Under the pieces are notes generated by a model. It was not told where the DNA came from. It saw only the letters and a list, made by a program, of their open reading frames with translations, and searched no databases. A stretch of 62,627 nt of DNA, the filler included, from Collodictyon triciliatum (taxonomy: Eukaryota): NCBI GenBank assembly GCA_043381765.1. It is 9 parts of 9 records of this genome, joined end to end, with 100 filler letters (N's around TTAATTAATTAA, not from the genome) between each part and the next. Parts side by side here need not be neighbours in the genome. Positions count along the whole stretch, not along the records: positions 6,601 to 13,119 come from JBHJMP010004420.1; 8 more parts are not named here. One strand, written 5' to 3'. This document shows, piece after piece, positions 6,401 to 58,085 of the stretch (positions are counted from its first letter, which is position 1; each line of letters starts with the position of its first letter). Position numbers and translations under genes: made by a program.

Positions 6401-6500
<100 letters not shown>

Positions 6501-6600
6501 NNNNNNNNNNNNNNNNNNNNNNNNNNNNNNNNNNNNNNNNNNNNTTAATTAATTAANNNNNNNNNNNNNNNNNNNNNNNNNNNNNNNNNNNNNNNNNNNN
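6501..6600. other. Artificial contig linker (N44-TTAATTAATTAA-N44); repeated at 13120-13219, 19719-19818, 26318-26417, 32917-33016, 42833-42932, 49429-49528 and 56022-56121
   Basis: Identical 100-nt spacer with stop codons in all six frames. Confidence 0.97.
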
Positions 6601-6924
6601 TATAAATCCGCCACCAAGCATGCATTTCAAAAAAGCATACTATCCACACTTGCGGCGATAATCATGTCGTTTGGGGCCGATATCTTAACTTTCAGTCGCA
6701 ATGGCTGTACGGCCGTCCTTTCGAACTCGCCGAATCGGCTCAGCGTTTTGTCTCAAATCATCATTTGTGAAAAAAACTTTGTGTTTGTTTGCCACAATGT
6801 GCACATTTTGAGCGTTTCGGTAGATGCTTAATTTTACATAAACTGACTTTATACAGTTTTTTATTTTATATAATCAAATTGACTGATTGACTTATGTTTC
6901 ATTAGAATTGAAAACTCGGTAGTT

Positions 6925-7227
6925 TTCTAAAGAAAAAGTAAAACAAAGACTTTCAGATGAAGAAAAGAAAACGTCTTGAGTCTGAGAGTCTAAAGTCTGT
7001 AGAACCAGACAATTGAAATGTGAAAACATCTTTAAAGTCGATTGTAAAGAATCTGGATGACTATGAAGAAATCAACGATACGGTTTTATTGTGTCATAAT
7101 TTGGTTACCGACACTTATCTATTTGCAAGATGTTACATATTGAAATCACAACAACTCCCAACAACCGATGAAATTTTTTTTTGTACCCCTTGAAGACAGT
7201 CGGAATAGTTTCACAAGATAGACTGGC

Positions 7228-7263
<36 letters not shown>

Positions 7264-8880
7264 AGATATGAGAGACGACATGATGACTTTTTATCTCTAC
7301 GATTTTCGATTCCTTTTGTCCCAAGAAGAACGCTTTCCGTTGGTTGGACTGTCTCGTGTATTATCGTACTTGGCGAAGCAAATGTTAACAACTTATCATA
7401 AAAATATTAAGTAGCATTTTTGCAGAGGTTACTGCGCTTTATAAATCAAACAGTTCCTAAAGATGAGTATGTTACGGAACCTATTAAAAAAAAAGGCAGA
7501 GTTACGAAAGTTAAAAAAAGTCATCTTCAATAAACTCGAAATACCGGAACAATATAAATAATGGGCTAAAATACATTTGCATCATATCATTCCCAGCGAT
7601 ATTGTAAAAGGTATCGAATATGACGTCAAAGTCAATCCAAATAAGTACACTCCATATCTGATTTACATGAATTGCATTTTCGAGGACATTGTAACCAAAC
7701 TGCTTCAACCAATCTCTATAAAAGCTGCCAATATACCATGGCATAATACTCTAGATACTGCACGTTTGATATATATTAGTATCATCTGAAAAAAAATCAT
7801 TAATGAAGAATTATCAGGATGCAAAGAGACCTATGGAATAAGTTCTTTGAAATGAAGAAGAGGGTCTTTCATCAAATAGACTACAATTTTAAATGCATGA
7901 TACAAACAGACGGCTTGGCGGTGTCATTATTATTTAAAAAGAAAGGTATTTCAAATTCAAGATTCAATTTAATCAAAAAACCTAAGAATATGTTTATATA
8001 GATGAATTTTCCGAAGAGCAGTTATCTTTATCAGCGGAAAAAAAATGGTTGGAGTGGACGCAGGCAAGTTTAATTTTGTTTGCGTGATGGATGAGACAGG
8101 TAAGAAATTAAATTATACGGCACACCAAACAAGACATGATAGCAAATCTCTTAAAAATCACAAAATACTCTTGCGCAAGAAAAAAAAGTACAATGCTTTA
8201 GGGACATGCATGACAATAGGTTTACAAAGTGCCATTTCTTTTGGTCTCAGGACTTTTGAAGAGAATCAGCGGTTTGAGACATCAAAAGTATCTTTAATCG
8301 ATTAGAGACAAAACTGAGTAAACATAATTCATGCGCGGTCGATTATGAGAAATTTCGGAAATATTTGTCTATGAAATCAAGATGCCAGATAGGATTATCC
8401 ATATTTTATGAACATGTAACTATTCGAAAGATGAGATGGAGACAGTATGTTGATGCAAAAAGAAGTGAAGAATTGTCTACGGACCGAATCGAAAAGACAT
8501 TGGGCAAGGATGTTGTACTGGTGTATGAAAACTGGAGCAGAAAATCTCTGATGAAACATTTTATGCCATCAATCGGAAGGGGATTACAAAAAATACTAAC
8601 CAAACGTTTTGAAGCAGTTAGTGTAAATGAATTTAGAACCTCCAAGGTGTGCTGCAACTGCGAAAACGAACTGGAATATATGAGACTGAAAGGTAATACG
8701 AAAAAAAAAGTGTATAGATGTCGCATATGTAAAGAATGCAATCGGTCAGAAAGCAAACAAAGTGTATTCTTGACAAGGGACTTTAACAGCGCCAAAAATA
8801 TGCTCAACGAAGTTCTTTCAATCCTTCAAAATATGCATACATTTTCATCTAAAAAAAATAGGCTGTTGGGTCTTTCCTAG
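6925..8880 (+). pseudogene. Fanzor1 (TnpB-like RuvC nuclease), about 640 codons, frameshifted and with premature stops
   Basis: N-terminal KTSLKSIVK; IQTDGLAVSLLF; RuvC-I VGVDAGK; RuvC-II region YENWS...PSIGRGL...VNEFRTSKVC; Zn finger CCNC...CKEC; RuvC-III TRDFNSAKNM. Confidence 0.85.
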
Positions 8881-8955
8881 CAACCTTTACCACTACACAG
8901 TCTTTGTGAAAAAAGCGGTGAGACCTTGGATACTAGCTGAACCAGTTTACTAATC
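8855..8955 (+). ncRNA. Candidate Fanzor omegaRNA scaffold (copy A)
   Basis: Non-coding tail conserved with copy B. GGTCT (8869-8873) can pair with AGACC (8921-8925) and encloses nested TTACCACT/AGCGGTGA and CACA/TGTG stems. Confidence 0.5.
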
Positions 8956-9369
8956 GAAAAGTTGTTACGCTCATCCTGGTATATAAAGATGACAATTAAT
9001 GAGCGAGGTACTTACACATTCTATTAGTTTCCCATCGCGCAAATACCTTGGAACGTGGTGGAATGAGAGAAAGGAAAAGAAATAAAATAAAATATAAGGA
9101 GAAAAAAAACGACGCTGCTCTTGAAAAACCTGGTATCACCTCAATTGGAAAATGAATTAGAAGATTTTTAGACACGAATAGTTTGTTGATTTTTTTTTTT
9201 TTTTTGGCCCATTTTTCAAGAGGCCTGCATCCCCTTACTTAGAATCGAATAAAGAAGAAAAAAATAGGTGCCTGCGTCCACGCATTGGCATTACCACACA
9301 TCTTGCCAAAAGAATTGGTTGCTGGAATGGGCTCCAGACCTTCTTAGTCTCGGGCAAAAAGGAAGGTGA

Positions 9370-9452
9370 TGACAAGAGTGGGATTTGAACCCACGCCCAC
9401 AGAGTAGACTGCGACCTGAACGCAGCGCCTTAGACCGCTCGGCCATCTTGCC
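9370..9452 (-). tRNA. tRNA-Leu(CAG)
   Basis: GGCAAGATGGCCGAGCGGTCTAAGGCGCTGCGTTCAGGTCGCAG...GGGTTCAAATCCCACTCTTGTCA: cloverleaf with long variable arm and A and B boxes; T5 terminator at 9356-9360. Confidence 0.97.
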
Positions 9453-9691: not shown

Positions 9692-10406
9692 NNNNNNNNN
9701 NNNNNNNNNNNNNNNNNNNNNNNNNNNNNNNNNNNNNNNNNNNNNNNNNNNNNNNNNNNNNNNNNNNNNNNNNNNNNNNNNNNNNNNNNNNNNNNNNNNN
9801 NNNNNNNNNNNNNNNNNNNNNNNNNNNNNNNNNNNNNNNNNNNNNNNNNNNNNNNNNNNNNNNNNNNNNNNNNNNNNNNNNNNNNNNNNNNNNNNNNNNN
9901 NNNNNNNNNNNNNNNNNNNNNNNNNNNNNNNNNNNNNNNNNNNNNNNNNNNNNNNNNNNNNNNNNNNNNNNNNNNNNNNNNNNNNNNNNNNNNNNNNNNN
10001 NNNNNNNNNNNNNNNNNNNNNNNNNNNNNNNNNNNNNNNNNNNNNNNNNNNNNNNNNNNNNNNNNNNNNNNNNNNNNNNNNNNNNNNNNNNNNNNNNNNN
10101 NNNNNNNNNNNNNNNNNNNNNNNNNNNNNNNNNNNNNNNNNNNNNNNNNNNNNNNNNNNNNNNNNNNNNNNNNNNNNNNNNNNNNNNNNNNNNNNNNNNN
10201 NNNNNNNNNNNNNNNNNNNNNNNNNNNNNNNNNNNNNNNNNNNNNNNNNNNNNNNNNNNNNNNNNNNNNNNNNNNNNNNNNNNNNNNNNNNNNNNNNNNN
10301 NNNNNNNNNNNNNNNNNNNNNNNNNNNNNNNNNNNNNNNNNNNNNNNNNNNNNNNNNNNNNNNNNNNNNNNNNNNNNNNNNNNNNNNNNNNNNNNNNNNN
10401 NNNNNN

Positions 10407-10915
10407 CGAAACAGCCGGCGAGATTCTTCGATTGACACTCAAGACGGCTGCGGCTGTTGGCCCAATCCAGGCGATATTTGGGCCTCTGCAACAGCTGCGT
10501 CCAGACGCAAAAACATTCTGAACAGTGACGCGAGGCCATTTGCTATGGACTATGTGGATAGCGCGCATTTACTCACGCAAAGTAAGCCTCAACAACCAGC
10601 CACCCATTCCTGATAATAGGTTGGATGACATCATACAAATCTCTTTCCCCAATAGCTTCCTTCGCCACCTGCACGTTCTCTACTACTCAGACCCTGTGAG
10701 AAGAGACATGTGGAAAGAGACTGAGAAAGATATTAAACCTCGCCTTGTATCTCTCATGCAAGCACAAGACTCTGGCTACAGGCCAAAGCACAGGATGCAA
10801 TTCCTGATTACGGACTACTTCTCCGCCACCCGGCCAACAAGCAGCGTTTGTGCAAATGATGGCTAGAAAATAAAAGCCTAAATCTTCTTTTATACTTACA
10901 AATCAGAAGAGTAGG
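10407..10915 (+). mobile_element. Non-LTR retrotransposon (L1/Tx1-like) ORF2 3' fragment
   Basis: Near-identical to 57416-57930 (ETAGEILRLTLKT...LLWTMWIARIYSRK); contains a premature stop. Confidence 0.8.
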
Positions 10916-11289
10916 ATATAAATACTCGTAATAATTCAAATTTACTCGAAGGGTTGCATTATCAAAGGTATTTTTCTTTTGGTTGATTTTTAGTATAACG
11001 ATGACTTTATAACCTCTAGTATGATTTATTTATCGAGTTTCTCATGGTTAAGTTGTCTAGTAGCGATGAGCAGAACGATTCAGAGGGACAATGTCTTTTG
11101 TTTCCTAATAGGTATAGGTAGGGTAACTGCGTCGTAGTGCGAAGAAGGGTGATTTTGTCCACATAAGAAGAAAAGATAACACAACATGATAAAAAAGCAT
11201 AAAAATCGCCACAATATCTCTTCTAGACAAAAAAAAACACAACAAATATGTTTTTTTTTAAAAAAAAAATCAGCAAAATTACAGCAAAC

Positions 11290-12957: not shown

Positions 12958-13232
12958 ATGAAGTGGAAGCGGGGTTAAGTACCTTTTTAATTGTCTCTCT
13001 TTTTCTCTCTCCCTTTTTTTAAAATTCTTTTCTTTTCTTTTCTTTTCTTTTCTTTTCTTTTCTTTTCTTTTCTTTTCTTTTCTTTTCTTTTCTTTTCTTT
13101 TCTTTTCTTTTCTTTTCTTNNNNNNNNNNNNNNNNNNNNNNNNNNNNNNNNNNNNNNNNNNNNTTAATTAATTAANNNNNNNNNNNNNNNNNNNNNNNNN
13201 NNNNNNNNNNNNNNNNNNNTTGCTTTCTCTAC

Positions 13233-15158: not shown

Positions 15159-15423
15159 AACGAATTGACGGAATAATCATATTTGCAAAAAGGTCGCTTT
15201 CGCGGAATCTGAAGGAAGCACCCCAAACTCAGATGATTTCATTCCCACACAGCTTTTATCATACGAGGCTATTATGCAGTATTGTGTTATTATTTTTAAA
15301 GTCAAGAAGCAATCGTCATTCAAAAACATCAAAATGCCTCCGCCTGATATACCTGAAATTCAGTTTTTATATAGCCATTTTTTATTTTTTACAATTTATC
15401 ATAGAAACTCAATAAGACAAGTA

Positions 15424-15586
15424 CAGCAAGAACAACAAGAACAACAAGAACAACAAGAACAACAAGAACAACAAGAACAACAAGAACAACAAGAACAACA
15501 AGAACAACAAGAACAACAAGAACAACAAGAACAACAAGAACAACAAGAACAACAAGAACAACAAGAACAACAAGAGCAACAAGAGC
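15424..15586. repeat. (CAACAAGAA)n 9-bp array
   Basis: Visible array. Confidence 0.95.
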
Positions 15587-15832
15587 ACCATAAGAAAGCA
15601 TGTTAAGATATATCTTCGTTTAGCCTCAGCATACATATTGAACGAATAAATTTGGGGAGCAAGTTTTCATGCATCTTTAAAATAAATAAAATAGGAGAAA
15701 ATAAAAATAAAACTATTTCCTTTCATTTGGAGAGGTTGAGCGTTCGTCTACCACAAAAATTTTATTTCGCTCTGCTGTCCATAATTAAAGTTGGCCAAGA
15801 AGGGAGACGGTTTCCATAGACTCATATTTGGA

Positions 15833-19431
<3,599 letters not shown>

Positions 19432-20380
19432 CAGTGACAATGTCTCTTGGCTTGTGAAAAGTTGCGCTCTGCTGTTTGGTAGGGTATGGTTTCAAGACTC
19501 TTTCCACTTCTTTTCCTTCTTTTCCGGTTTGGCCCGCCTCCGTGCGATTTCGTGTAAACAGAGACCAGAGAACCAACCTTTGTGAGCTCGGAAGCTGGCC
19601 ATTCCCGGATTGCAACGCAAAAAACAAAAAAATAAAAAAATAAAAATAAAAACAAAAACAAAAACAAAAACAAAAACAAAAACAAAAACAAAAACAAAAA
19701 CAAAAACAAAAACAAAAANNNNNNNNNNNNNNNNNNNNNNNNNNNNNNNNNNNNNNNNNNNNTTAATTAATTAANNNNNNNNNNNNNNNNNNNNNNNNNN
19801 NNNNNNNNNNNNNNNNNNAACAAAAAAGAAACAAAAAAGAAACAAAAAAGAAACAAAAAAGAAACAAAAAAGAAACAAAAAAGAAACAAAAAAGAAACAA
19901 AAAAGAAACAAAAAGAAACAACGCGAAAATTACTGTGCCATTGTTAATTACTCCATATATCAGCCATTTTTCAACTAAAGAACAGAAAACTCACGACTAT
20001 TTAATTATACCATTCTCCAAAAAAAAAAAAAAGAGCCCTGGGGGAAAGCGTAGTATTCGGTAAATAGATATTTTGATTAAAATATATGTTCCCTTGTAAG
20101 AAGTGTATAAACAATCAGATAATCAAAAATTTCACTATGGATATAATAAATAATTTAATCCAGATATTTTCTCATTATTCTATTCAAAGAATTCAATCCT
20201 GTGATGAATACAACACAACACTTACATTAACAGAAACATATGATATTATCTAAAACGTGAATGGTATTAATCGTACTATCCTTGCTCTTTTCGAACAACG
20301 CAACATAAACGAAAGACATTAAAGATAAATTTAAACGATGATGATTAATAGAAAGTGTCCTTACATCGAAACATCCTAAA

Positions 20381-24252: not shown

Positions 24253-24914
24253 CCAATGCTTAATATCACCAATAGGGAGCTATGAATAGGCACACACGCG
24301 GCAAAAGCTGGCAAGGTCTCCCAACAATGCACACTTTGCAGCAACGGTAATGAATCCATTGAGCACACATTTGTGCAATGTCCCTTCGCTCAAAACCATG
24401 CGCAAAACAGCCGGCGAGATTCTTCGACTGACACTCAAGACGGCTGCGGCTGTTGGCCCAATCCAGGCGATATTTGGGCCTCTGCAACAGCTGCGTCCAA
24501 AGGCAAAAACATTCTGGGCAGTGACGCGAGGCCATTTTCTACGGAATATATGGATAGCGCGCATATACTCACGCAAAGCAAGACTCAATAACCAGCCGCT
24601 CATTCCTGATAATAGGTTGAATGACATCATACAAATCTCTTTCTCTCAACAGCTTTCTTCGCCACCTGCACGTTCTCTACTTCCCAGACCCTGTGAGATG
24701 ATACATGCGGAAAGAGGCTGAGAAAGAGACTCAACCTCGCCTTGTCTCCCTCATGCAAGCACAAGACCCAGGCTACAGGCCAAACCGCAGGAATTAATTC
24801 CTGATTACCGATTACTTCTCCACCACCCGGCCACCAAGTAGCGTCCGTGCAAAGGATGGCTAGCGAACCAAAGCCAACATCTCCAACATTTCGCACAAAA
24901 TTGAAAGGAGGATA

Positions 24915-25008
<94 letters not shown>
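24253..25008 (+). mobile_element. 5'-truncated L1/Tx1-like ORF2 fragment ending in (TAA)n
   Basis: Matches 57264-57930, including the CTLC...EHTFVQC Zn knuckle; (TAA)n starts at the ORF2 end (about 24912). Confidence 0.85.
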
Positions 25009-26317: not shown

Positions 26318-28060
26318 NNNNNNNNNNNNNNNNNNNNNNNNNNNNNNNNNNNNNNNNNNNNTTAATTAATTAANNNNNNNNNNNNNNNNNNNNNNNNNNN
26401 NNNNNNNNNNNNNNNNNTTATCGGACGTAAAAGGATTTCAGAGGAAAAAAATATAATCACACGCTCTCGGTTACTTTTGATAGCCAAGAGTGTTTGGATG
26501 AGACAGACTCTGGTAACTAAATAATGCAAAAGCTAAACAAAAAAATGGTTCAGTTTATTTGCACCATAAAAGGTAAAGGCTAAATCAGCGGCTCCATAGA
26601 CTTGCTTGTTGATTTTGTGTGTCAATAAATGGAAAAGGCTCCTGATTCGATGTGCTGATTACGATTTTATCGACATATTCTAAAAGTACGGCATTTATGA
26701 AGGTGTCATCAGACTGGAATATCCAACAAGATTCGAAGCCTGGAGGCATACATTCCGAGCCTCATATGGTATTACGGTGTTTTTGAAAACAAAAGTGAGA
26801 TAATACTTCCTTAAGTTTCAAAATGCAGTTCAACACAAGATTATCCTGGAAGGTTGTAATGGGTGCCTGCTTCGGAAATAACAGCATATTATTATATTAT
26901 ACATCACAAATTCTTGGCACATATATGTTGCTTCTTTCATCTCTTATTTAAAACACGTATTTGTTGTATTTAAAATTGAAAATATTGAAAATAAAAATTA
27001 TAACACAGCTCCGCAACAAGTCCTTTATGTTAAGAGTAAAATAAGATTTATAAACATAAAAAGCTAACGCACAATGCCCTTTTTCATTTATTTTTTTTGT
27101 CAATTTTGTTGATTTTAAAACCTGTTCTTTTTTTAATTATCTGCGCAATTAACCAAGTTAAATATGAATTCTTTGATTATTTATCAACGTGGGCTGTGAA
27201 AATGTGTGCCGTTGAGGACAACGCTTTTTATTCTGGCGGTTTAAATAATTTTTTGCTTCATTACATCAGTTTATTGAAAGGAAACAGAGCTGAAAAAATA
27301 CCCTCCTTTCAAGTTACATAATGACAGTCCAATGAATATTTATTTAGTAGATAATCACAAAATTTATACTGTTACAAAAACAAATATATTTATAGTTTAA
27401 ACTTATATTTTATTCTACATTTTTTACACGTTTAACAACACAACATAAAATAGAAGATAAATCTAATTTTTATATATCTTGTCATTAAATCACCAATTAA
27501 ACCTCATTCCTTGTTATATTTCTCATTGCACATCGGCTACTAAACAAAAACTAAAACTCACTTTCTCACACATCTGTATGGAAGAGTAAAAATTATGTTT
27601 TGCATCCTATCAAGTTTTTATTATTCGGCAATATGAATTTTTCGCACTATTTATTTTATATGTGTACTCAGAGCCGCATTGTGCATAATAATGCCATACA
27701 ATGATGGCTAAGTCTTGAATAAATGGAAACATAAACATGGCTAAGACCATTTGTAGGCGGTTTAATCATTATATTTATTGCTCCGGATGTTGCACTTTTG
27801 TATTTATAATATGACTATAATTAATACCCATGCTTCGCAACGAGCGTTTAAAATCCCATCTAAGATAAATAAAATGTAAAACACTGTCCATATATTATAC
27901 AAATCAAAATGAAATTCTACATATCACATATTTTGTGAAAATAGAAGCTTGTATTATTTGAAAGCATTTTAATTTTTTTTGCTTATTTTATCTTTTTTTT
28001 TTGTTTGTTGTTGGATGTATCCATTAAAATTAACAATTATTAACATTAACATCACCATTA

Positions 28061-32742: not shown

Positions 32743-33699
32743 AATATCAGAACAAGAGCTAAATAAAACGATGGAATATTCCATATACCAATTTGATCTA
32801 TTTTGTTGTTCATTCTTTTTCCTTTTTCCTTTTTCCTTTTTTCTTTTTTCTTTTTTCTTTTTTCTTTTTTCTTTTTTCTTTTTTCTTTTTTCTTTTTTCT
32901 TTTTTCTTTTTTCTTTNNNNNNNNNNNNNNNNNNNNNNNNNNNNNNNNNNNNNNNNNNNNTTAATTAATTAANNNNNNNNNNNNNNNNNNNNNNNNNNNN
33001 NNNNNNNNNNNNNNNNAATAATGGTTGCTGAAGGATTCAGATGCTGAAAAGAAGCAACAAACCCGAAATGACACACAAGCGAGCAGGACTATAGTTATGC
33101 TGCCCAATATAAAAGGGATGCTGGGATTGAGGAAACATAATGACGATGCAAGGTTCAAAAAAATATGGGTACTTATCCGCACAAGTATTTATATGATTTT
33201 GGTGTTATCCTTTAACATACAACTCACATGCAAATGATGGCACAGTTTATAGTATACATAAAAATTATAGGGTATCGAAAATTGTATATTAAGTTCGCTA
33301 CTTGGACATATGTAAGGATTATGCAGGACATCTTTTTGTCTCTGAATTTTTGCAGGAGTCTTTGAATCTAATCTATTTAGGGTTACTATTGAGTATCTAG
33401 AAAACTTCTTTCTTCCTTTATTCGATTCANNNNNNNNNNNNNNNNNNNNNNNNNNNNNNNNNNNNNNNNNNNNNNNNNNNNNNNNNNNNNNNNNNNNNNN
33501 NNNNNNNNNNNNNNNNNNNNNNNNNNNNNNNNNNNNNNNNNNNNNNNNNNNNNNNNNNNNNNNNNNNNNNNNNNNNNNNNNNNNNNNNNNNNNNNNNNNN
33601 NNNNNNNNNNNNNNNNNNNNNNNNNNNNNNNNNNNNNNNNNNNNNNNNNNNNNNNNNNNNNNNNNNNNNNNNNNNNNNNNNNNNNNNNNNNNNNNNNNT

Positions 33700-36600
33700 T
33701 TGGAGCGCGAGTTTCAAGAGGTTTTATTCTGAATTTCCACTTTCTACAGCAGAAATCTACATATTCTTCTATATATTTCTTTTTATAACAGTATCGTTTG
33801 AGAATAAATCCCTCAAATTTAATCAATCAAAGATTTGCGTAGTAGACAGCTTGTTTTTTCACCTTCATTTATTCACTCACTATTTTTTTTTTTGTTTCTT
33901 GGCTTCTTTGTTTCTTTTTCAAGAGTGCTTACTTTCCATGATTTTCCGTACCACAGATTTTCACTGAGCTTGTCTCAGAAAAACACTTGGAAAAGTTTCG
34001 GATCGAGTACGAGAAACTCCATCGCGCACTGAAAAAGTCTCATGAGAGCGAAAAAAGACTGATAAAAAAGTGTCGCGAACTCAACACTGAAATCGTGGCA
34101 AACACGGCAAAAGTCCAGACAGCTGTAAAAATGTCGCAGGAAGACCAAAACACCATTTCTAGTTTGAAAAAGGTGATTCTACTTCCCCCAATCTTTCCTT
34201 CCTTCCTCTCTTCCCTCTCTTCCCTCTTTTCCCCATTGAACACATAATTGGACTCCGCGCTTCGGATTACAAAATGTGCGATATAGATTGCATAATAAGA
34301 CCTTTCCTGGTTTTTATTCCTTTTCCTTGCGTTTCATCTTCTGGATGTGATTTATTCTATCGATATCATAGGAAATCGAGAAAGGATGGAAGCTGGTCGA
34401 TCAGTCCCATGAGAAAGAGGCAAAGGCCCGAGATTCCATTCAGCAACTGAAGGTAGAAATCAGCAATCTCAGCAAGATGGTGGAGCAAGGGGCAGGTCTG
34501 ACCTTGGGCCAGGAGCACAGTGTGAATGAACTATTAAAAGTGAAGGAAGAGCACACAAAAGGTCTGTAGCCATGCATCGCAATTACGATACATATTCTTG
34601 TTCACTTTTTTTTTCCAAAGCTTTCAGGGCATCATTCAATCATAAAAATTAAGATGAACATGAGGTTCAATCCATGTTAGCCTCCATCACTTGTACTCTT
34701 CGTTTTTAACACAAAATGGAACACATTAAATGCAGAACGGGATGAGCAAATGAGCAAAATAGTCGCCTTCCGAACACAAATCACAGAATTGACAGAAAAA
34801 ATCAGAATATTGGAGGGCGAAAAAATATCAGCGGAACATGATATTCACACTCTGAAGGAATTGATTGCATCGAAAAAGGCCGAGTCAGATCGTGAACAGC
34901 GGCGCAAAGAAAGACTTGAGAAAGAACTAAAAGCATGTCTTAGTCTCATAAAATTATGAACCTGATTACAAAACAGCCTTCTATGAAATACAATAAATTA
35001 ATAGTTTTTGAATAGCAATATTTGATCACTGATTGAATTTTTTCATCTAATCTGATACATGAACTAATATGTATAGGACTTGAAAGTAATTCTGGAGAAT
35101 CGACAGTTAGAAATCAAAACAAAGCAGGCTCAAATCGTAACAAACAATGAGCAGATCACTCGCTTGGACCACCAAATTCGAGACCAAAAGAATCAATCCG
35201 AAAAAGCACTCAAAGAGCTTGACTCTCTGAACCAGAAAATCCTGAAGATGCAGCAAGACCTTGAGGACCAAATTCATAGCAACACACAGTTACTCACTGA
35301 AAATTCACAACGTCATGTGGAGTTGAAGGGAAAAGAAGAGGAAACGATTCGTGTTCGCCAAGAAGCCACCAAGATGGAAAAAATGCACGAAAATCTTGTT
35401 CGCAAAATGCAGACGCTGGAGGAGCAAAAGGTTCAGGTGGAGGGCCAAAAGGAGCAGCTCAAATTGGAGACCAGTCACATCGAAAGAGAAGTCGAAATCA
35501 TGGCAAAACAAATAGAAGGCGATAAGAAATCCTTGGATGATTTGATGCGAGAGCGTGACATTCTCAACAAGAATTTGCTCAAGGCTGCTAGTGCCACACA
35601 GCGGCAGGCAGATTTAGTTAAAGTACAGGAAAACACATTGAAGAACCTGGAACAAGAAATCAACGGATACAAAACCGAGGCACAAAGACAACGAAAGGTT
35701 TTTTTTTATTTTTTGCTTATTAACCATTCAATTTTCTACAAGGGGTTATTCTGTTTTTCATTAAAAAGAATTGTACTACGTCGCGAGCCCAAAGAAAATT
35801 ACCCAATTAAACTTGAGTTTACTTGGTTTACTGAAGATTATATTCCAACTGGAACGAGACCGAGAAAAATACGATGAAGAATCAGCAGCAGCGACATCGA
35901 AGTTTTTGCAGGCTTTGGAGGAGGTGAAAATCAGAGACCTTGCAATAATGGAATTGCAGAAGAAAATTGCCGAGGGAGAGACAAAGCTGAAGCAACAGCA
36001 GGTATGATAGCTGAGGCAATATATGCACGAAAACAACTTTTGGCTGCCTTATTCATGCATGAATTAATCGTAGGACTTGTTGACCATTTCGCTTACTCAT
36101 TCACTCAATCAATCCCTTTTCCTTTTCCCTTTTTCCTCTATTTCCTCTATTTCCTCTATTTCCTCTATTTCCTCTATTTCCTCTATTTCCTCTATTTCCT
36201 CTATTTCCTCTATTTCCTCTATTTCCTCTATTCCCTCTATTTCCTCTATTTCCTCTATTTCCTCTATTTCCTCTATTTCCTCTATTTCCTTTATTTCCTT
36301 TATTTCCTTTATTTCCTTTATTTCCTTTATTTCCTTTATTTCCTTTATTTCCTTTATTTCCTTTATTTCCTTTATTTTCTTTATTCCCTTTTTTCCTTTA
36401 TTTCCTTTATTTCCTTTATTCCCTTTATTCCCTTTATTCCCTTTATTCCCTTTATTCCCTTTATTCCCTTTATTCCCTTTATTCCCTTTATTCCCTTTAT
36501 TCCCTTTATTCCCTTTATTTTCTTTATTTCCTTTATTTCCTTTATTTCCTTTATTTCCTTTATTTTCTTTATTTTCTTTATTTCCTTTATTTCCTTTATT

Positions 36601-38897
36601 TCCTTTATTTCCTTTATTTCCTTTATTTCCTTTATTTTCTTTATTTTCTTTATTCCCTTTATTCCCTTTATTCCCTTTATTTTCTTTATTTCCTTTATTT
36701 TCTTTATTTCCTTTATTTTCTTTATTTCCTTTATTTCCTTTATTTCCTTTATTTCCTTTATTTTCTTTATTCCCTTTATTTCTTTTATTCCCTTTATTTC
36801 TTTTATTTCCTTTATTTCCTTTATTTCCTTTATTTCCTTTATTTTCTTTATTCCCTTTATTCCCTTTATTTCCTTTATTTCCTTTATTTCCTTTATTTCC
36901 TTTATTTTATTTATTTCCTTTATTTCCTTTATTTCCTTTATTTCCTTTATTTCCTTTATTTCCTTTATTTCCTTTATTTCCTTTTTCCTTTTTCCTTTTT
37001 TCTACACAACAGACTTTGTATGAGGCTGTGCGCTCAGATCGTAATCTATACAGCAAAAATTTAATTGAATCGCAAGAGGAAATATCGGAAATGAAGAGAA
37101 AATTCAAAATCATGAATCATCAGATCGAACAGCTGAAGGAGGAAATCAGCTCCAAAGATTCTAGTAAGAATTTGTGTTGAGATTTCCTTCACCGCTAATA
37201 CATGCGTACTTCAAATTTTGCGATATTGTGAATCTATTTGTTTACTTGTTCTCTTTCTTTAACCATTTTGTTTTTAGCTCTTGTAAAGGAGCATTTTGAG
37301 CATATGAAGGTTGATAAGGAGAAAGAGAACCTCAAGAATGAACTTACAAGAATCAAGAAACAGATCGACGAAGCAGAGCAGGTGATGGCTCTATTAAATG
37401 ATTATTTTTTCTATCTCAATCGTATTTTGATGGTCTCTGTATTGATAGACGAATCCTATTACAGGATTGTTTGTCACTCATTCAATTCTGTGTAGGCCAT
37501 AAGTCAACAAAAGGCTGAAATCCAGAAACTGAACCACATCATCAATGAAGCTGATGCTGAAAGGATTCGACAAAAGAAAGAATACGAGATGGTCATCAAC
37601 GAAAGAGTACGGATTTTGACTATTTTCTTTCATGATTCTCGATGCAACAGTACCACGTCTGATATAATTGGATTTCCTATCGATATTCCAATATTTTAAG
37701 CAAGATTACTTGTTTGCATAGTGTATATTTACATAGTTCTATCATCTCCTAGTAGTAATCACACATTTATTAAACTGCCTATCTAGGATATCCTGGGAAC
37801 TCAATTAATTCGCCGAAATGAAGAGCTTGCTGTTCTCTATGAGAAAATCAAAATCCAACAAAGCACACTTACTAAAGGTGAAATCCAGTACCGCCAACGA
37901 TTGGAAGACATTCGCATTCTCAAACTGCGTGTCAACGATATCAAGAAGGAACTTCATATGCTCAAGTCTCAAGTGAAGAACATTGATGTGCTTCGAAATG
38001 AAGTTTATCATCTACAGAGAGAGTTGCTGCAAGAGCGAACCAAAGTAAAGGCTCTCAGCGAAGAACTCGAGAATCCGATGAATGTACATCGATGGAGAAA
38101 GCTAGAGGGGTCTGACCCAGCTTCGTACGAAATGATTCAGCGAATTCATTCGCTCCAGCGCAAGCTGATATCAAAAACAGAAGAGGCATGTTTCTCCGGC
38201 TATGCTCCAACAACATTTGATATGTATTTGTTTTATGCTATGCTAATTCGTAGAGAATCTTCTCTACAAGTCGAACTTGAGCTTGGAAGATATCCACCAA
38301 CTTCGATTTATATTTTTATTCTTATTATCATTATTATTCATAACCCATATACATTCTAGATTGTTGAGAAAGACTTACTCATCCAAGAAAAAGAAAAACT
38401 TTATGTGGACCTGAAAAATATACTTGCACGCCAGCCCGGACCAGAAGTTGCAGAGCAATTAAATATTTATCAGCAAAATCTCAAGGAAAAATCGAAGCAA
38501 TTGAAGGTAGGTTGTGTTACGGTATTTCCTATTTCATATTATTTCCTTTTGAAACTCATTTCTGTTTCTTCTGTGTTCCCCGTATTAAGTTTTCATTTGA
38601 AAATCAGGCCATGGAGGGCGAGCTGAACATGTACCAAGGGCGAGTCCGAGAGTATAAAATGGACATTGAGAGGGTTGACAAGGAAATGTACGCACTGAGG
38701 AATCGGTATTTTGAATCAAAGAGAAAAGAACAAATAAGACGGTAAGGTTTACTTTCGATAAAGGAAAGGCATCTTTTCTCTCCACCTTTCACCAATCTTT
38801 TTTTTTTAAGCGATGCATTACTCACGCACAATTTTTCAAATACAGCGAGAAAGAGAATGCCGAAGGCCTTCAAAACTCCCGGTGGATACTCTCATAA
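33700..38897 (+). CDS. CFAP58: Cilia- and flagella-associated protein 58 (start lies in the gap)
   Basis: LEKFRIEYEKLHRALKKSHESEKRLIKKCRELN, LYEAVRSDRNLYSKNLIESQEEI, ELLQERTKVKALSEELENPMNVHRWRKLEGSDP, LKNILARQPGPE. Confidence 0.95.
36130..36985. repeat. About 850-bp 9-mer minisatellite (TTTATTTCC and variants) in a CFAP58 intron
   Basis: Visible array with block-wise variants. Confidence 0.95.
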
Positions 38898-42350: not shown

Positions 42351-42932
42351 CTTTGCTATGGAGAACGTTTGGAGGAGATGACGTCCCTCGTGCTTGGAGG
42401 CCGTCGGTAGCTTTATTACTTTCGTTTTGACAGAGTGGCGTGAGCACTAAACCTCTGTTTTCTTTTTTCTTCATCTTTTTTTCTTTTTTCTTTTTCTCCT
42501 CCTATTACTCATTTTGTCACTATCTTATATTGTTTTTTCTTTCTTTCCTCTAATCAGCTGCCTATTCTATCGAGATAAAACATAGTCTTGTACTCTTCTC
42601 GTGCGAATATTGCTACCCCCGAGCTGTCTAGCAAATAGACACGATAACGCTCGTCCCAACAGCTTTGTCGCTGCGCAGTTTATTTGGTGCAGTTTTTTTG
42701 TATTGTTTTTCACAAAGAATCAAAAGTCGAATAGTTTTCAAAAATATACGTATACCCTTCTCCAAGAACACTACCGTGTTGAAGTCCTTGAAACAAGTTT
42801 AATTTCCCTTTTCTTTTCTTCTTTCTTCCTGCNNNNNNNNNNNNNNNNNNNNNNNNNNNNNNNNNNNNNNNNNNNNTTAATTAATTAANNNNNNNNNNNN
42901 NNNNNNNNNNNNNNNNNNNNNNNNNNNNNNNN

Positions 42933-46857: not shown

Positions 46858-47700
46858 GAGTCTCGGTGTCTATGGCCTACTCTAAATTCTTTCGACACAA
46901 AACATCGCCATTGACACCCTGAAAAGGTCAAAACATCATTGATGGGATAATCCCTGGGCACAATCCACACCCTGCTCACTGCAAGCTAAATATAAACGAG
47001 GATGTCGCAAGTAATTCCAAATCTTCACTTTCTAATACTTAATTTCACCAATAGGGAGCTACAGACAGTTACAGGCGCAGCAAAAGTTGGCAAAGTCACC
47101 CTAAAATACATACTTTGTAGCAACAGTGATGAATTCATTGATTACACATTTGTGCAATTTCCTTTTACTCAAAATCTTTACGAAACAGCCAGTTAGATTC
47201 TCCGGTCGACATTCAAGACGACTGAAGCCGTTGGTCCAATCCAGGCGATATTTGAGCCTCTACAATAGCTTTGTCCAGATGCGAAAACGCTCCGGACAGT
47301 AACACGAGGTCAATTACTGTCGAATGTAGATAGCACGCAAAATGCTCATACAAATCATAATTCAACAACCAAACACGCATTCCTGATAATAGTCTGGATG
47401 GCATCATACAAAACTCTTTTCTCAGCATCTTCCTTCGCAAATTGCATATTCTTTATTACTCAGACCCAGTAATAAGATACATATGGAAAGTAGCCAAGAA
47501 AGAGATTCAACCACGCATTGCCCGTCACGCAAGATAAAAGGCCCAGACTGCAAGGCAAAAAAAAAACAGGATGCAATTCCTGATTACCGACTACTTCTCC
47601 GCTACCCATTACCCAATAACGTCCACCCAAACAATGACTAGAGAATCATAGAAAATATCCTAATCATCTGGCACTTATTGAAAGAAATAATAATAAAAAA
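46858..47700 (+). mobile_element. Old, diverged L1/Tx1-like ORF2 3' fragment
   Basis: Colinear with 57087-57930, with many substitutions and stops. Confidence 0.8.
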
Positions 47701-49428: not shown

Positions 49429-49957
49429 NNNNNNNNNNNNNNNNNNNNNNNNNNNNNNNNNNNNNNNNNNNNTTAATTAATTAANNNNNNNNNNNNNNNN
49501 NNNNNNNNNNNNNNNNNNNNNNNNNNNNTTTTTTGTTTTTTCCTATTTTTCTATTTTTCTCTATTTTTCTGTTTCTTTATTCCTTTTTTTTTCTTCGGTC
49601 TTATTCAACCTGTAAATGGATTAACTTCATTGCAAAGATTGTGACGAACTTTGTTTTATCCGTTTCAAGGCACAGCACTTTTTATACAACGAAAGTGTAC
49701 CCATATAAATATATAGCAGTTTATTACACAGACAACCATGGAAATAAAATCTGGGTTGAGAAAAGCAGGAGCTTTGATAAATCCAAGAATCAATCTGAAT
49801 AATATAATAATAATATTAGTATATATTTAGATTAAAAATACTTCATAATATCATTCTATTCCTGTAATCAATTAATGTTTTATTTATGTTATTATTGTTT
49901 CGCATTAAAATTCAATATGACAAACAAGCCGATGCCTTGACCAGACAGAACCCACCC

Positions 49958-52098
49958 TATAAACCTGCCACCAAACATGCATTTCAAAAAAGCATACTAT
50001 TCACACATGCGTCGGTAATCATGTTGTTTGGGGCCGATATATTGACTTTCAGTCGCAATGGCTATACGGCCGTCCTTTCGAACTCGCCGAATCAGCTCTC
50101 AGGGTCTTGTCTCAAATCACTCATAAAAAAATTTGTGTGTCTGTTTACCACAAAGCGCATATTTTGAAAGCCTCGGTAGATGCTTAATTTTACATAAATT
50201 GATTTTATGCAGTTTTATTAAATCGACTTATAGATTGACTAAAGTATTATTAAAATTGAAAACTCGGTAGTTTTCTAAAGGAAAAAGTAAAACAAAGACT
50301 TTCAGACGAAGAAAAGAAAACGTCTTGAGTCTGAGAATATAAAGTCTGTAAAACCAGACTGTCGAAATGTGATAACATCTCAAAAGTCGATTGTAAAGAA
50401 TGCGGGTGACTATTAAAAAATCAACGGTACGGTTTTATTGTGTCATAATTTGGTTACCGACACTTATCTGTTTGCAAGATGTTACATATTGAAATCACAA
50501 CAACTCCCAACAATCGATGAAATGTTTTTTGTGTGCCTTAAAGACAGTCGGAGTAGTTTCACAAGATAGATACGCAAGTTTAAAACATCCAGATACGACC
50601 TTATATATTATGAATTTTATCTCAATGATTTTCGATTCCTTTTGTCCCGAGAAGAACGCTTTCCGTTGGTTGGACTGTCTCATGTATTACCGTACTTGGC
50701 GAAACAAATGTTAACAGCTTATCATAATAACATTAAGGAGCATTTTGTAAAGAGGCTAGTGCGCTTTATAAATCAAACAGTTCCTTTGAATCGAATAAAG
50801 GAAAAAAAATCAAACAGTTCCTATATATGAGAATATGACAGAAGCTATTAAAAAGGCAGAGTTACGAAAGTTTTAAAAAAAAGCCATCTTCAAGAAACTC
50901 GAAATACCGAAGAATATAAAAGATGGACTATAACGCATTTGCATCGTATCATTCCCAGCGATATTGTAAATAGTATCGAATATCACAAAGTCAATCCAAA
51001 CAAGTACATTACATATCTGATTTACATGAATCGCATTTTTGAGGACATTGGAACCAAGCTACTACAACCAATCATTACAAGATATACAATATGCCATGTC
51101 ATATTACTATAGATACTGCATGTTTGATATATCTATTAGTATCATCTGCAAAAAAATCATTACTGAAGAATATATCAGGATGCAAAGAGACCCTATGGTA
51201 TGATTTCTTTGGAATGAAGAAGAGGGTCTTTCATCAAAGAGACTACAATTTTAATGCATGATATAAACAGACAACTTGGCGGTGTCATCATTGTTTGAAA
51301 AGAAAGCTATTTCAAATTCAAAATTCAAATATAACCAAAAACCCAAGAATGTATTTATATAGATGAACTTTCCAAAGCGCATTTATCTTTATTGGCGCAA
51401 AGAAATAGTTGGGGTGGACGCAGGCAAGTTTAATTTGGTATACATGGTGGATGGGACAGGCAAGAAATTACATTATACGGCACACCAAACAAGACATGAT
51501 AGCAAATCTCTTGAAAATCACAAAATACTCTTGCGCGAGAAAAAAAGTACAATGCCTCAGGGGTATACATGGCAATAGGTTTACAAAGTGCTATTTCTTT
51601 TGGTCACAGGACTTTTGAAGAGAATCAGCAGTTTGAGACACCAAGAGTATCTTTAGTCGATTTAGAGACAGAACTGAGTAAACATAATTCATGTACCGTC
51701 AATTATGAAGAATTTCGAAAATAAGTATCTATGAAATAAAGATACCAGATAGAATTTTCCAGATTTTATGAACACGTAGCCTTTTGAAAGATGATATGGA
51801 GACAGTATGTTCATACAAAAAGAATTGAACAATTGTTTATGGGCCGAATCAAAAAGACATTTGGCAAGGATGTTATACTGGCGTAAGGAGACTGGAGCAA
51901 ACAAACTGTATTCTTGACAAGGGACTTTAACAGCACTCAAAATATATACTCAAGAAAGTTCCTTTAATACTTCAAAAATATACATACACCTCTTTTTAAA
52001 AATAGGCTGTTGGGTCTTTCTTGGAAGCCTTCACCACTACACGACCCCTATGAAAAAAGTTATGAGACCTTGGATACAGCGAACGAAGTTTACCAATC
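49958..52098 (+). mobile_element. Fanzor1-type element, copy B (pseudogene with internal deletion)
   Basis: Colinear with 6601-8955. Keeps IVGVDAGKFNL, GDWS and TRDFNS but lacks the EFRTSK and Zn-finger block. True 5' end unknown. Confidence 0.85.
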
Positions 52099-52494
52099 TT
52101 TATATTAGTTTACTATATAAATATAATTAAACTATATATGTAGTCCTATTGAAAATTAGACGAGTTCTGCGTTTCTCAGAGAAAAATGTATAAATTCCGC
52201 ATTAGAATAAAACGATTGAATGTTTATGTGGTCACGTGGGCTTATAAACTTACTTGACGGCCGACATGTCATTCTATTCCTTGCGTCCTGGTATATAGAA
52301 AGTGCACGATCGTCTCTGTAAGACCACGCATCCGACTCTAGACATGCACAAGCACCATCTCACACCGATCTTCATAGACTGGATTTGTATTTTTGCTCAA
52401 CAAAATCATTTGCATATTTTTTTTTTTTTATCAGCTTTCCACACCGCCTAAACCATGCTCGACCAAAGTCGCAGAAAAGCTGAGTTCTCTCAAG

Positions 52495-56021: not shown

Positions 56022-56653
56022 NNNNNNNNNNNNNNNNNNNNNNNNNNNNNNNNNNNNNNNNNNNNTTAATTAATTAANNNNNNNNNNNNNNNNNNNNNNN
56101 NNNNNNNNNNNNNNNNNNNNNGGTTCACAGACAGCAAATTTTAAAAGATGTGGCATTTTCCTCGTTCATGGGGTTTGGTTTTGTTATTCTAATTTCCTCT
56201 TTCTAAATGCCTTAATTATATCGATTTATTCTTGTTGCAGACGCCTCCTTGTGGATGCGGCCGAAGGGATTAGCAGGTTTGAAGATAACATAGCACACGC
56301 CACGCAATCGAATGGCTGCTCTCATATTGACTCTATTCTAATTGCACACTGGAATCGCGATAATAGACGGTATACTCACCATCATGAAACGGGTTTCTTT
56401 TTGTATTTTGAAATGGGAATAAGCTATTGATGTGTGCGCACTCTCTCTTGGTTTTATTAATAGTTCTTTCGACTTTTAGGTCAGGTTATGTTTCAGTGAT
56501 TTTAAGGTCCTTTTTAATTGTTATTAATGGTTGTCTCATTTTATTTGGGTTTAGAAAGTGTCCCAAATGGAAGATGAAGCACCCACACGATGTTACGATT
56601 GGTGCGTGCTCTTTTTTTAATTGCTTTGACTTCTTACTAAACATACAACCACA

Positions 56654-58085
56654 CTAAATTAAGAAGCAGGCTGTTGGCCTGGATGTTCAAAGGAAGTGCC
56701 CTCGCACCCCAACAAAATACGATATGTTAAACCTTTGAATGATTTAATTTCCTACCCAACCAAGTGAAAAGCCAACCATCCAACAAGCGTTAGCCGCATA
56801 TAGAAAGAATTAAATATATGGAAAAGAATAAGTCAAGAACAAGATTTTAACATCACAGCATCATCGGTGCTAGCAACTTGGACAAAGCGAAGTTTGATTT
56901 GCATCATTCTTGGCTAGCTTGTATGCAAGATTCCATCGCAGTCGGCACACAAGATGCACACAGCCAACCACAGCCGTTCTGAATAACAAAGGAAAATGGC
57001 GCTCACGTAGACAAGTCTCATACGACATTCCGTCGCCATTCTACTTCCACCTCAAGAACGAACGCTCGTCAACGGTGCACAGTCTATGCAGTTCTCGATG
57101 GCTATGGCCTACTCCAAATTCTTTCGATACAAAATATCGCCGCCGACACCCTACAAAAAGTCAAAACATCAACGGTGGGGAGAAACACTGGGCATCACCC
57201 ACACCCCGCTCACCGCAAGCTGGAGACAAGCACGAACCCCGCAAGTCCTTCCAATTCACCACTATCTAATGCTTTATATCACCAATAGGGAGCTATGGAT
57301 AGGCACACGCGCGGCAAAAGCTGGCAAAGTCTCCCAACAATGCACACTTTGCAGCAACGGTGATGAATCCATTGAGCACACATTTGTGCAATGTCCCTTC
57401 GCTCAAAACCATGCGCAAAACAGCCGGTAAGATTCTTCGACTGACACTCAAGACGGCTGCGGCTGTTGGCTCTATCCAGGCGATATTTGGGCCTCTGCAA
57501 CAGCTGCGTCCAGATGCAAAAACATTCTGGGCAGTGACGCGAGGCCATTTGCTATGGACTATGTGGATAGCGCGCATATACTCACGCAAAGCAAGATTCA
57601 ACAACCAGCCACCCATTCCTGATAACAGGCTGAATGACATCATACAAATATCTTTCCTCAATAGCTTTCTTCGCCACCTGCACGTCCTCTACCGCTCAGA
57701 CCCTGTGAGAAGAGACATGTGGAAAGAGGCTGAGAAGGACATTAAACCTCGCCTTGTCTCTCTCATGCAAGCACAAGACCCAGGCCACAGGCCAAAGCGC
57801 AGGATGCAATTGCTGATTACCGACTACTTCTCCGCCACCCGGCCACCAAGTAGCGTCTATGCAAAAGATGGCCAGCGAACTAAAGCCAACATCTCCACCA
57901 TCCTGCACAAAATTGAAAGAAAGAATAAATAAAATCATTCAAAACAAAAAAACCAAAAGAAAAAAAAACACACCATCCAGGAACTTCTCAATTGTCTCGT
58001 CCACAACTCATTGTCCCAGAGGCGAAGGCGATATCCCGGCTTTGTTTTCGTATATATAAACTGTTGGAGACAAGTCAAAAAAAAT
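56654..58085 (+). mobile_element. L1/Tx1-like non-LTR retrotransposon, 5'-truncated, with ORF2 C-terminus, 3' UTR module and A-rich tail
   Basis: zf-RVT-like CTLCSNGDESIEHTFVQCPFA followed by LLWTMWIAR; stop at 57932; 3' module at 57969-58085; at least four ORF2 copies in the window. Confidence 0.85.

Follow-up and report, generated by a model that had tools for sequence, protein, structure and literature searches.

Two decayed Fanzor1 copies in Collodictyon triciliatum and a probable omegaRNA remnant at their 3' end

A stretch of 62,627 nt from the genome of Collodictyon triciliatum (assembly GCA_043381765.1; the whole stretch is called the window below) carries two copies, A and B, of an element with a Fanzor1 nuclease gene, and a preliminary description of this DNA had proposed a conserved, structured 3' tail in them as candidate omegaRNA, the guide RNA of such nucleases. 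Judged by sequence comparison, both window genes are Fanzor1 pseudogenes, and the tail is probably what is left of the omegaRNA gene that a Fanzor1 transposon family carries at its right end, here in two dead copies. The nucleases are broken and the tail changes at the pace of the remaining element; there is no sign of present function, and both copies were judged to be relics. The scaffold is still recognisable only as a long-range helix, GGGUCUU/GAGACCU, and a short terminal hairpin. By analogy with published relatives, the 3' end of the Fanzor1 transcript of a live element would fold into a scaffold to which the nuclease binds, the 15-20 nt taken from the DNA past the transposon end would guide the cleavage of matching sites, and this guided cleavage would keep the element in place or spread it.

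The two copies and their common end

The window is made up of pieces of about 6.5 kb, one of them 9.8 kb long, linked by N44-TTAATTAATTAA-N44. Because of these linkers copies A and B belong to separate contigs and copy A is cut at 6601. Copy A (6601..8955, + strand) has lost its left part at the contig start, just after the N-linker, while copy B (49958..52098, + strand) is more decayed and has many in-frame stops. They are 81-91% identical over four blocks in blastn, the 3'-most of which aligns 8752-8955 with 51896-52098 at 81% identity, and copy B has a 212-bp deletion corresponding to 8540-8751 of copy A. A third copy was not found within the window.

The nature of the gene was recognised through P0001, an intact protein of 648 aa encoded on a 2,610-nt contig and the sole close relative found by protein search in 5.8 billion clusters. 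The C-terminal open reading frame (ORF) of copy A (8365-8880) is 66% identical to it, and the next-best relatives do not exceed 46%. P0001 matched all three solved Fanzor1 proteins in the PDB by phmmer: GtFz1 of Guillardia with an E value of 2e-28, PpFz1 of Parasitella with 3e-24 and SpuFz1 of Spizellomyces with 4e-23. The protein identity to these solved enzymes is low, and the relation is known by these E values of P0001 only; the window fragments alone gave weak Pfam matches under the cut-offs. With P0001 as tblastn query the decayed frame of copy A could be followed over 6957..8909 (+ strand) in five pieces (frames 3, 2, 1, 2, 1), with four in-frame stops and four frame changes relative to P0001, and an additional frame shift is situated inside the A-run 8851-8858. 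The RuvC and zinc-ribbon motifs VGVDAG, CCNC..CRIC and RDFNSA are still readable in this copy; an intact reading frame was found in neither. Searches for closer relatives gave nothing: none was present among the 184 pattern matches obtained in metagenome contigs with P0001 as single query, nor among the 52 obtained in viral contigs with an alignment (A2), and a pattern conserved between A and B had no match in viral contigs or in prokaryote genome contigs.

It was clearly demonstrated by blastn and by global and local alignment that the likeness of the two copies ends where it had been reported to end. It runs to ...GTTTAC[T/C]AATC, that is to 8955 and 52098, and no likeness follows in the global alignment. 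Over the next 445 nt (A) and 802 nt (B) the best local alignment is a poly-T run whose score does not exceed the best of 200 shuffles. Since the end is common and the flanks are unrelated, the core of the earlier observation is real. A right end at 8955 would rest on these two copies, and the strand and the position at the 3' end of the ORF fit an omegaRNA.

Fanzor1 omegaRNAs lie at or over the end of the ORF and span the 3' inverted repeat (PMC10432273), a design published also elsewhere (PMC10530073). As they are described by Saito et al. 2023 (PMC10432273) and Xu et al. 2024 (PMC11423790), the omegaRNAs of SpuFz1, PpFz1 and GtFz1 share the strand and the position at the ORF 3' end with the window tail, and the similarity of the window copies likewise stops abruptly a few tens of nucleotides past the ORF. 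The omegaRNA of GtFz1 overlaps C-terminal codons too (17 aa; PMC10432273). Tail A, the candidate scaffold remnant (8862..8955, + strand), overlaps the ancestral C-terminal codons as far as a TGA at 8907-8909; tail B occupies 52004..52098 (+ strand).

The statement that the homology extends about 75 nt beyond the stop needs correction. When read in register with P0001 (..KKQAVGYSS..), A and B both give AVGSF... as far as the TGA at 8907-8909, and a TAG at 8859-8861 stands in this frame at the position of the P0001 Q. The TAG at 8878-8880 closes a frame shifted at the A-run 8851-8858. As the stop used before lies in this shifted frame, the extent of the tail that was ever non-coding is uncertain.

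The intact GGTCT/AGACC pairing described earlier could be confirmed: GGGTCT (8868-8873; 52012-52017) and AGACC (8921-8925; 52065-52069) are identical in A and B and able to pair. The joint fold of the two tails consists of a single long-range helix of 12 pairs, GCUGU.GGGUCUU with GAGACCU..AUAC.AGC, in which the 5' strand GGGUCUU (8868..8874, + strand) forms seven invariant pairs with the 3' strand GAGACCU (8920..8926, + strand); the corresponding strands of tail B are 52012-52018 and 52064-52070. The nested inner stems reported for copy A are present in its own fold but they are not kept in copy B: the inner hairpin CACA/UGUG (8896..8908, + strand) has four pairs in A, of which two remain in B.

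The RNA module of the relatives and its trace in the window

In order to obtain relatives, metagenome contigs were scanned in a protein-guided manner, and of the 433 relatives found among 598 pattern matches the best 80 were taken (L001-L080). Their identity to P0001 in tblastn is 36-50%, mostly 37-47%, at full length in most loci, and rises to 43-53% across the C-terminal 170 aa; by sequence they are the nearest Fanzor1 clade to the window copies. They are Tc1/mariner/IS630-type Fanzor1 elements from aquatic metagenomes, of the kind catalogued as PGv-1 and its relatives (Bao and Jurka 2013, PMC3627910). Many of them are on contigs of 20-290 kb. Unlike the window copies their genes are intact and intronless, in elements of 2.4 or 3.3 kb with 24-nt terminal repeats; they share with the window the collinear C-terminal peptides, the motif of the outer helix (helix 1) and an A-rich linker.

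The C-terminal tails of the 78 loci that reach the stop codon fall into groups of 42, 25 and 8, plus three others, and all groups have a common nucleotide module over the last codons, the conservation of which collapses right after ..GGTGTAAA. The alignment of the 53 distinct 3' modules out of the 80 loci contains four helices with 25 pairs: the outer GUCU/AGAC, which encloses a 7-bp stem-loop, then a small hairpin and finally a long stem; the 3' strand of this last stem forms the extreme end of the module. In this structure 96.9% of the cells are paired, compared with 39-50% when the partners are slid by 1-3 columns; 12 pairs have changed on both sides, and none of 500 shuffles reached the observed covariation score. 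Helix 1 itself covaries (GUCU/AGAC, GACC/GGUC, GGCU/AGCC, GUUC/GAAC). Since the ORF stops are scattered across the module and codons are altered by the compensatory changes, it is the RNA that is constrained there.

In the relatives the right terminal inverted repeat doubles as the last stem. Of 62 loci inspected, 41 have an inverted copy of the final 24 nt upstream (37 with at most four mismatches), and these repeats delimit the elements of about 2.4 or 3.3 kb; in L002 the longer form includes a gene for a DDE_3 (Tc1/mariner/IS630-type) transposase. No transposase was found in the window by tblastn with that of L002 (best E 2.7). A module ending in the right terminal repeat matches the published omegaRNA design (PMC10432273; PMC10530073).

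Some side observations concern the same module. In L001-L080, over the final 40-60 codons and the 50-110 nt behind them, the ORF stop positions vary within one conserved module, and peptide motifs such as EKVGQSVDFTVGKAT therefore seem to reflect RNA structure that happens to be translated and not a constraint on the protein. L012 (2494-2660) has an insertion in the last stem together with tandem right-end motifs (..GGTGTAAA and, 9 nt on, ..ggtgtaaa), and in L071 (918-997) this stem is interrupted by 11 inserted nt. Such ends may be nested or repaired. By eye, in Table S3 of PMC11423790, the GtFz1 omegaRNA TTCAAGGGTGT...GTGTAAAAAG resembles the right end TTCAAGGGTGTAAA of L001-L009, and the PpFz1 omegaRNA has TTGGTCAAT in common with the 3' strand of helix 1 in the relatives.

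The window tail could be connected to this module at two levels. The C-terminal peptides are collinear, with ..GYSSTALTVTHKRMRM before the stop of P0001 and ..GSFLATFTTT.. of the window standing opposite to ..GLTFT../..SSFT.. and ..EKVGQS../..EKVRPS (stop) of the relatives; ..GYSST...KRMRM (stop) of P0001 lines up with ..SSFT...EKVRPS (stop). At the nucleotide level a composite motif was constructed from helix 1 and the linker of the relatives (GTCTTTC, 20-50 nt, AAAAAG, 2-6 nt, AGAC; the second gap was widened after the window had been seen), and it matched the window only at 8870-8924 and 52014-52068, while none of 100 shuffles contained it. From its presence at both tails it follows that GGTCT/AGACC is the counterpart of the relatives' helix 1. 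The window helix 8868-8874/8920-8926 is collinear with helix 1, its 3' strand is preceded by an A-rich linker (8909-8915) as in the relatives, and the inner hairpin of copy A occupies the place of their 7-bp stem-loop. Another alignment, which lays GCTGTTGGGTCTTTC of the window on GTTGATTTTAC of the relatives and brings AATC level with their right end (46 nt after the stop compared with 46-48 nt), was set aside because the ungapped peptide alignment of P0001 and the relatives places GYSST on GLTFT/SSFT.

Several results weigh against the interpretation of the tail as an omegaRNA remnant, and some of them qualify what had been said of it before. The tail (8860-8955) had been called conserved; its 78 identical bases out of 94 aligned (83%), with three additional gap columns, have to be compared with 1352/1534 (88%) in the ORF and 305/343 (89%) in the 5' region, therefore it has been kept no better than the rest of the decaying copies and the excess conservation is absent. 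It had also been called structured, yet relative to 200 shuffles the folds have z-scores of -0.16 (A) and +1.50 (B), A and B have dissimilar minimum-energy folds, and the reverse strands are likewise unremarkable. Random mutation at 21 columns gave an equal or better joint energy in 36% of 1000 trials for copy A and in 5.4% for copy B. None of the 12 joint pairs covaries, all of them being invariant.

The same holds for the comparison with models. The covariance model of the relatives gave 13 matches in the whole window, all with E of at least 1 and none at the tails; with the filters off it had no match at tail A on the + strand and reached 6.3 bits at tail B (E 0.21 in 451 nt). Neither tail was found by nhmmer with the 5' half of the module or with the whole of it. 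Due to these failures the link to the RNA of the relatives rests on the 17-base composite motif and on the collinearity of the peptides. Moreover, words of the window tails had no match in the 80 loci of the relatives, and Rfam detected only tRNA in the whole window, with no family match in 8700-9100 at E up to 1. A terminal repeat of the relatives' type is absent from the window (up to three mismatches), as is an inverted copy of the window's own end (up to two mismatches), where the left end of copy A lies outside the contig and possibly that of copy B as well; inverted repeats between the tail and the upstream regions were at chance level. Compared with the known Fanzor1 omegaRNAs, the window end has no visible inverted repeat, both nuclease genes are dead, and the 7-pair helix, invariant in the two copies, encloses about 45 nt and not a small loop.

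An alternative is that the tail never had an RNA role and is simply the C-terminal coding end and the 3' untranslated stretch of a duplicated pseudogene, the common end being a duplication or deletion breakpoint and not a transposon end. About half of the tail (8862-8909) indeed reads as C-terminal codons in the P0001 frame, its identity is equal to or under that of the remaining element, terminal repeats were not found, folding signal and covariation are absent, and the RNA-model and hidden Markov model searches were negative. We nevertheless consider this explanation unlikely. All 53 aligned relatives have a covarying RNA module at the same position, selection there acts on the RNA since the compensatory changes alter codons, the ORF stops wander through the module, and the helix-1 motif is collinear in the window. 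Furthermore, random breakpoints would not be expected to give precisely the same end in two unrelated contexts.

The omegaRNA reading of the preliminary description is in part supported by the Fanzor1 gene, by the location and by the counterpart of helix 1 in the relatives, whereas the tails do not fit the model of the relatives and belong to dead nuclease genes. Guide-RNA modules at the right end that have outlasted a working nuclease in cis have been described in the 'ghost' Spu-1 loci (PMC10432273); these differ from the window in having conserved inverted repeats and a strongly conserved scaffold that was shown to work, while the window scaffold decays. If the tail is an omegaRNA remnant, it is one more decayed example of the published rule that the Fanzor1 guide-RNA gene stands at the right end, and little new. 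The comparison set of 53 relatives with its four-helix module is the more useful by-product, as it separates the ancestral part of the window tail (the outer helix) from what is missing or replaced.

The right end and the candidate guides

Where the scaffold ended can be answered in two ways, which stand about even. Either the element ends at AATC, with a scaffold of a short form like that of PpFz1, or the end was about 30 nt further and both copies are 3'-incomplete, without the last stem formed with the terminal repeat. For AATC speaks that two copies in unrelated contexts share the same final base, that the 29 nt from the helix to this end resemble the spacing in PpFz1 (see below), and that a terminal hairpin UUGG..C[U/C]AA closes 2 nt before this end in both. 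In copy A it spans 8926..8953 (+ strand; UUGG...CUAA with inner AGCUG/CAGUU), and in copy B, folded with its flank, the outer pairs are UUGG/CCAA; four pairs are too few to carry weight. The relatives continue for 50-73 nt 3' of UUUAC through the last stem and the terminal repeat, while the window tails end after 5 nt. The truncation of copy B at its 3' end is a live alternative too.

If AATC is the right end, the flank of copy B (52099..52118, + strand), which is unlike that of copy A, is a candidate guide. The flank of copy A (8956..8976, + strand), equally unlike its counterpart, is either the proposed guide or still part of the element; 8956-8975 as a guide is possible, and one independent copy speaks against it. 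This copy comes from a lake metagenome (X2), in which short contigs with copies 80-90% alike were found. One of them aligned to copy A up to 8976, that is for 21 nt beyond AATC, and this likeness puts the proposed scaffold/guide boundary in question. The contig may represent the same insertion in a related organism. Its 18 letters after 8976 are unlike copy A and contain GTAAAC, the complement of the GTTTAC before AATC, an arrangement that mirrors the last stem UUUACAC...GUGUAAA of the relatives; GTAAAC would turn up among 18 random letters with a probability of about 0.3% (13 positions/4096), and it was noticed after the fact. A second X2 contig terminates at ..GTTTAC.

The 12-mer TCCTGGTATATA was seen in both flanks, at 8973-8984 and 52287-52298, i.e. 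18 nt past the end of A and 189 nt past the end of B, where it lies upstream of a leucine-rich-repeat gene (LRR_8). Since the local alignment score is not above that of shuffles, it is probably a TATA box or chance.

Of the published scaffolds, that of SpuFz1 has 75 nt with a guide of 14-15 nt (PMC10432273); stem-loop 1 (SL1) comprises 7 bp in each of the three solved Fanzor1 complexes, the PpFz1 scaffold is minimal, and the region past SL1 varies freely among Fanzor1s (PMC11423790). The tail might be a complete and usable short-form scaffold ending at AATC, with 8956-8975 and 52099-52118 as guides; an intact Fanzor1 from another place in the genome could then serve it in trans, in the manner of the gene-less 'ghost' loci of Spizellomyces. 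A final base shared by two contigs with unrelated flanks is what the end of a mobile element usually looks like. The 7-pair helix has remained free of changes although 21 of the 96 tail columns differ, and the terminal hairpin, with G.U in A and G-C in B, closes 2 nt short of the boundary in each copy. The distance from the helix to the boundary, 29 nt, is close to the 28 nt from SL1 to the guide in PpFz1 (by eye, Table S3, PMC11423790), and ghost loci lacking the nuclease work with SpuFz1 (PMC10432273). A soil run contains short contigs identical to copy A, which indicates that the organism has been sampled in nature. Among the sequencing runs searched, parts of the window were found in two metagenome runs and in no RNA run, and runs X3 and X5 yielded no aligned contig.

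We regard this as quite improbable, because the tail is conserved no better than the dead ORF, the inner stems seen in A are disrupted in B, the structure-preserving mutation test was not significant, the tails do not fit the RNA model of the relatives, an intact nuclease was not seen within the window, the X2 contig resembles copy A past AATC, and the 24 unchanged paired columns were chosen after the fact. Very doubtful is the more particular proposal that the lineage of P0001 and the window copies shed the terminal-repeat stem of its nearest relatives and arrived at a minimal omegaRNA ending at AATC (the 7-pair helix and a 3' part of about 29 nt), similar in size to that of PpFz1, the smallest scaffold known, which an intact nuclease could still use in trans. 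If it were true, and a nuclease in the same soil eukaryote used the RNA, 8956-8975 and 52099-52118 would be live guides, and a naturally short scaffold in this lineage would have some practical interest for compact genome editors.

Other features of the window

The linkers between the pieces, readable as stops in six frames, are situated at 6501-6600, 13120-13219, 19719-19818, 26318-26417, 32917-33016, 42833-42932, 49429-49528 and 56022-56121, and further, longer N runs are present at 9692-10406 and 33430-33698. Due to these joins distances and neighbourhoods that span them are meaningless; dynein exons just 5' of copy A are part of another piece.

On the contig of copy A a tRNA-Leu(CAG) lies at 9370-9452 (- strand; Rfam 55.7 bits; also ARAGORN), 415 nt past the end of the element; no link between this tRNA and the Fanzor1 element was found. 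A second family of dispersed repeats (families D11-D15) is located at 10407-10947, 24403-24944, 47181-47520 and 57416-57956, with 3-4 copies of 60-94% identity on four different pieces, one of them adjoining the run of 715 N. The tandem array at 36007-36800 has a period of 9 nt and was recorded as 85 overlapping 300-nt copies (family D1), and microsatellites were observed at 6405-6500, (ATA)n, and at 15400-15600 and 18580-18760, (ACA/CAA)n.

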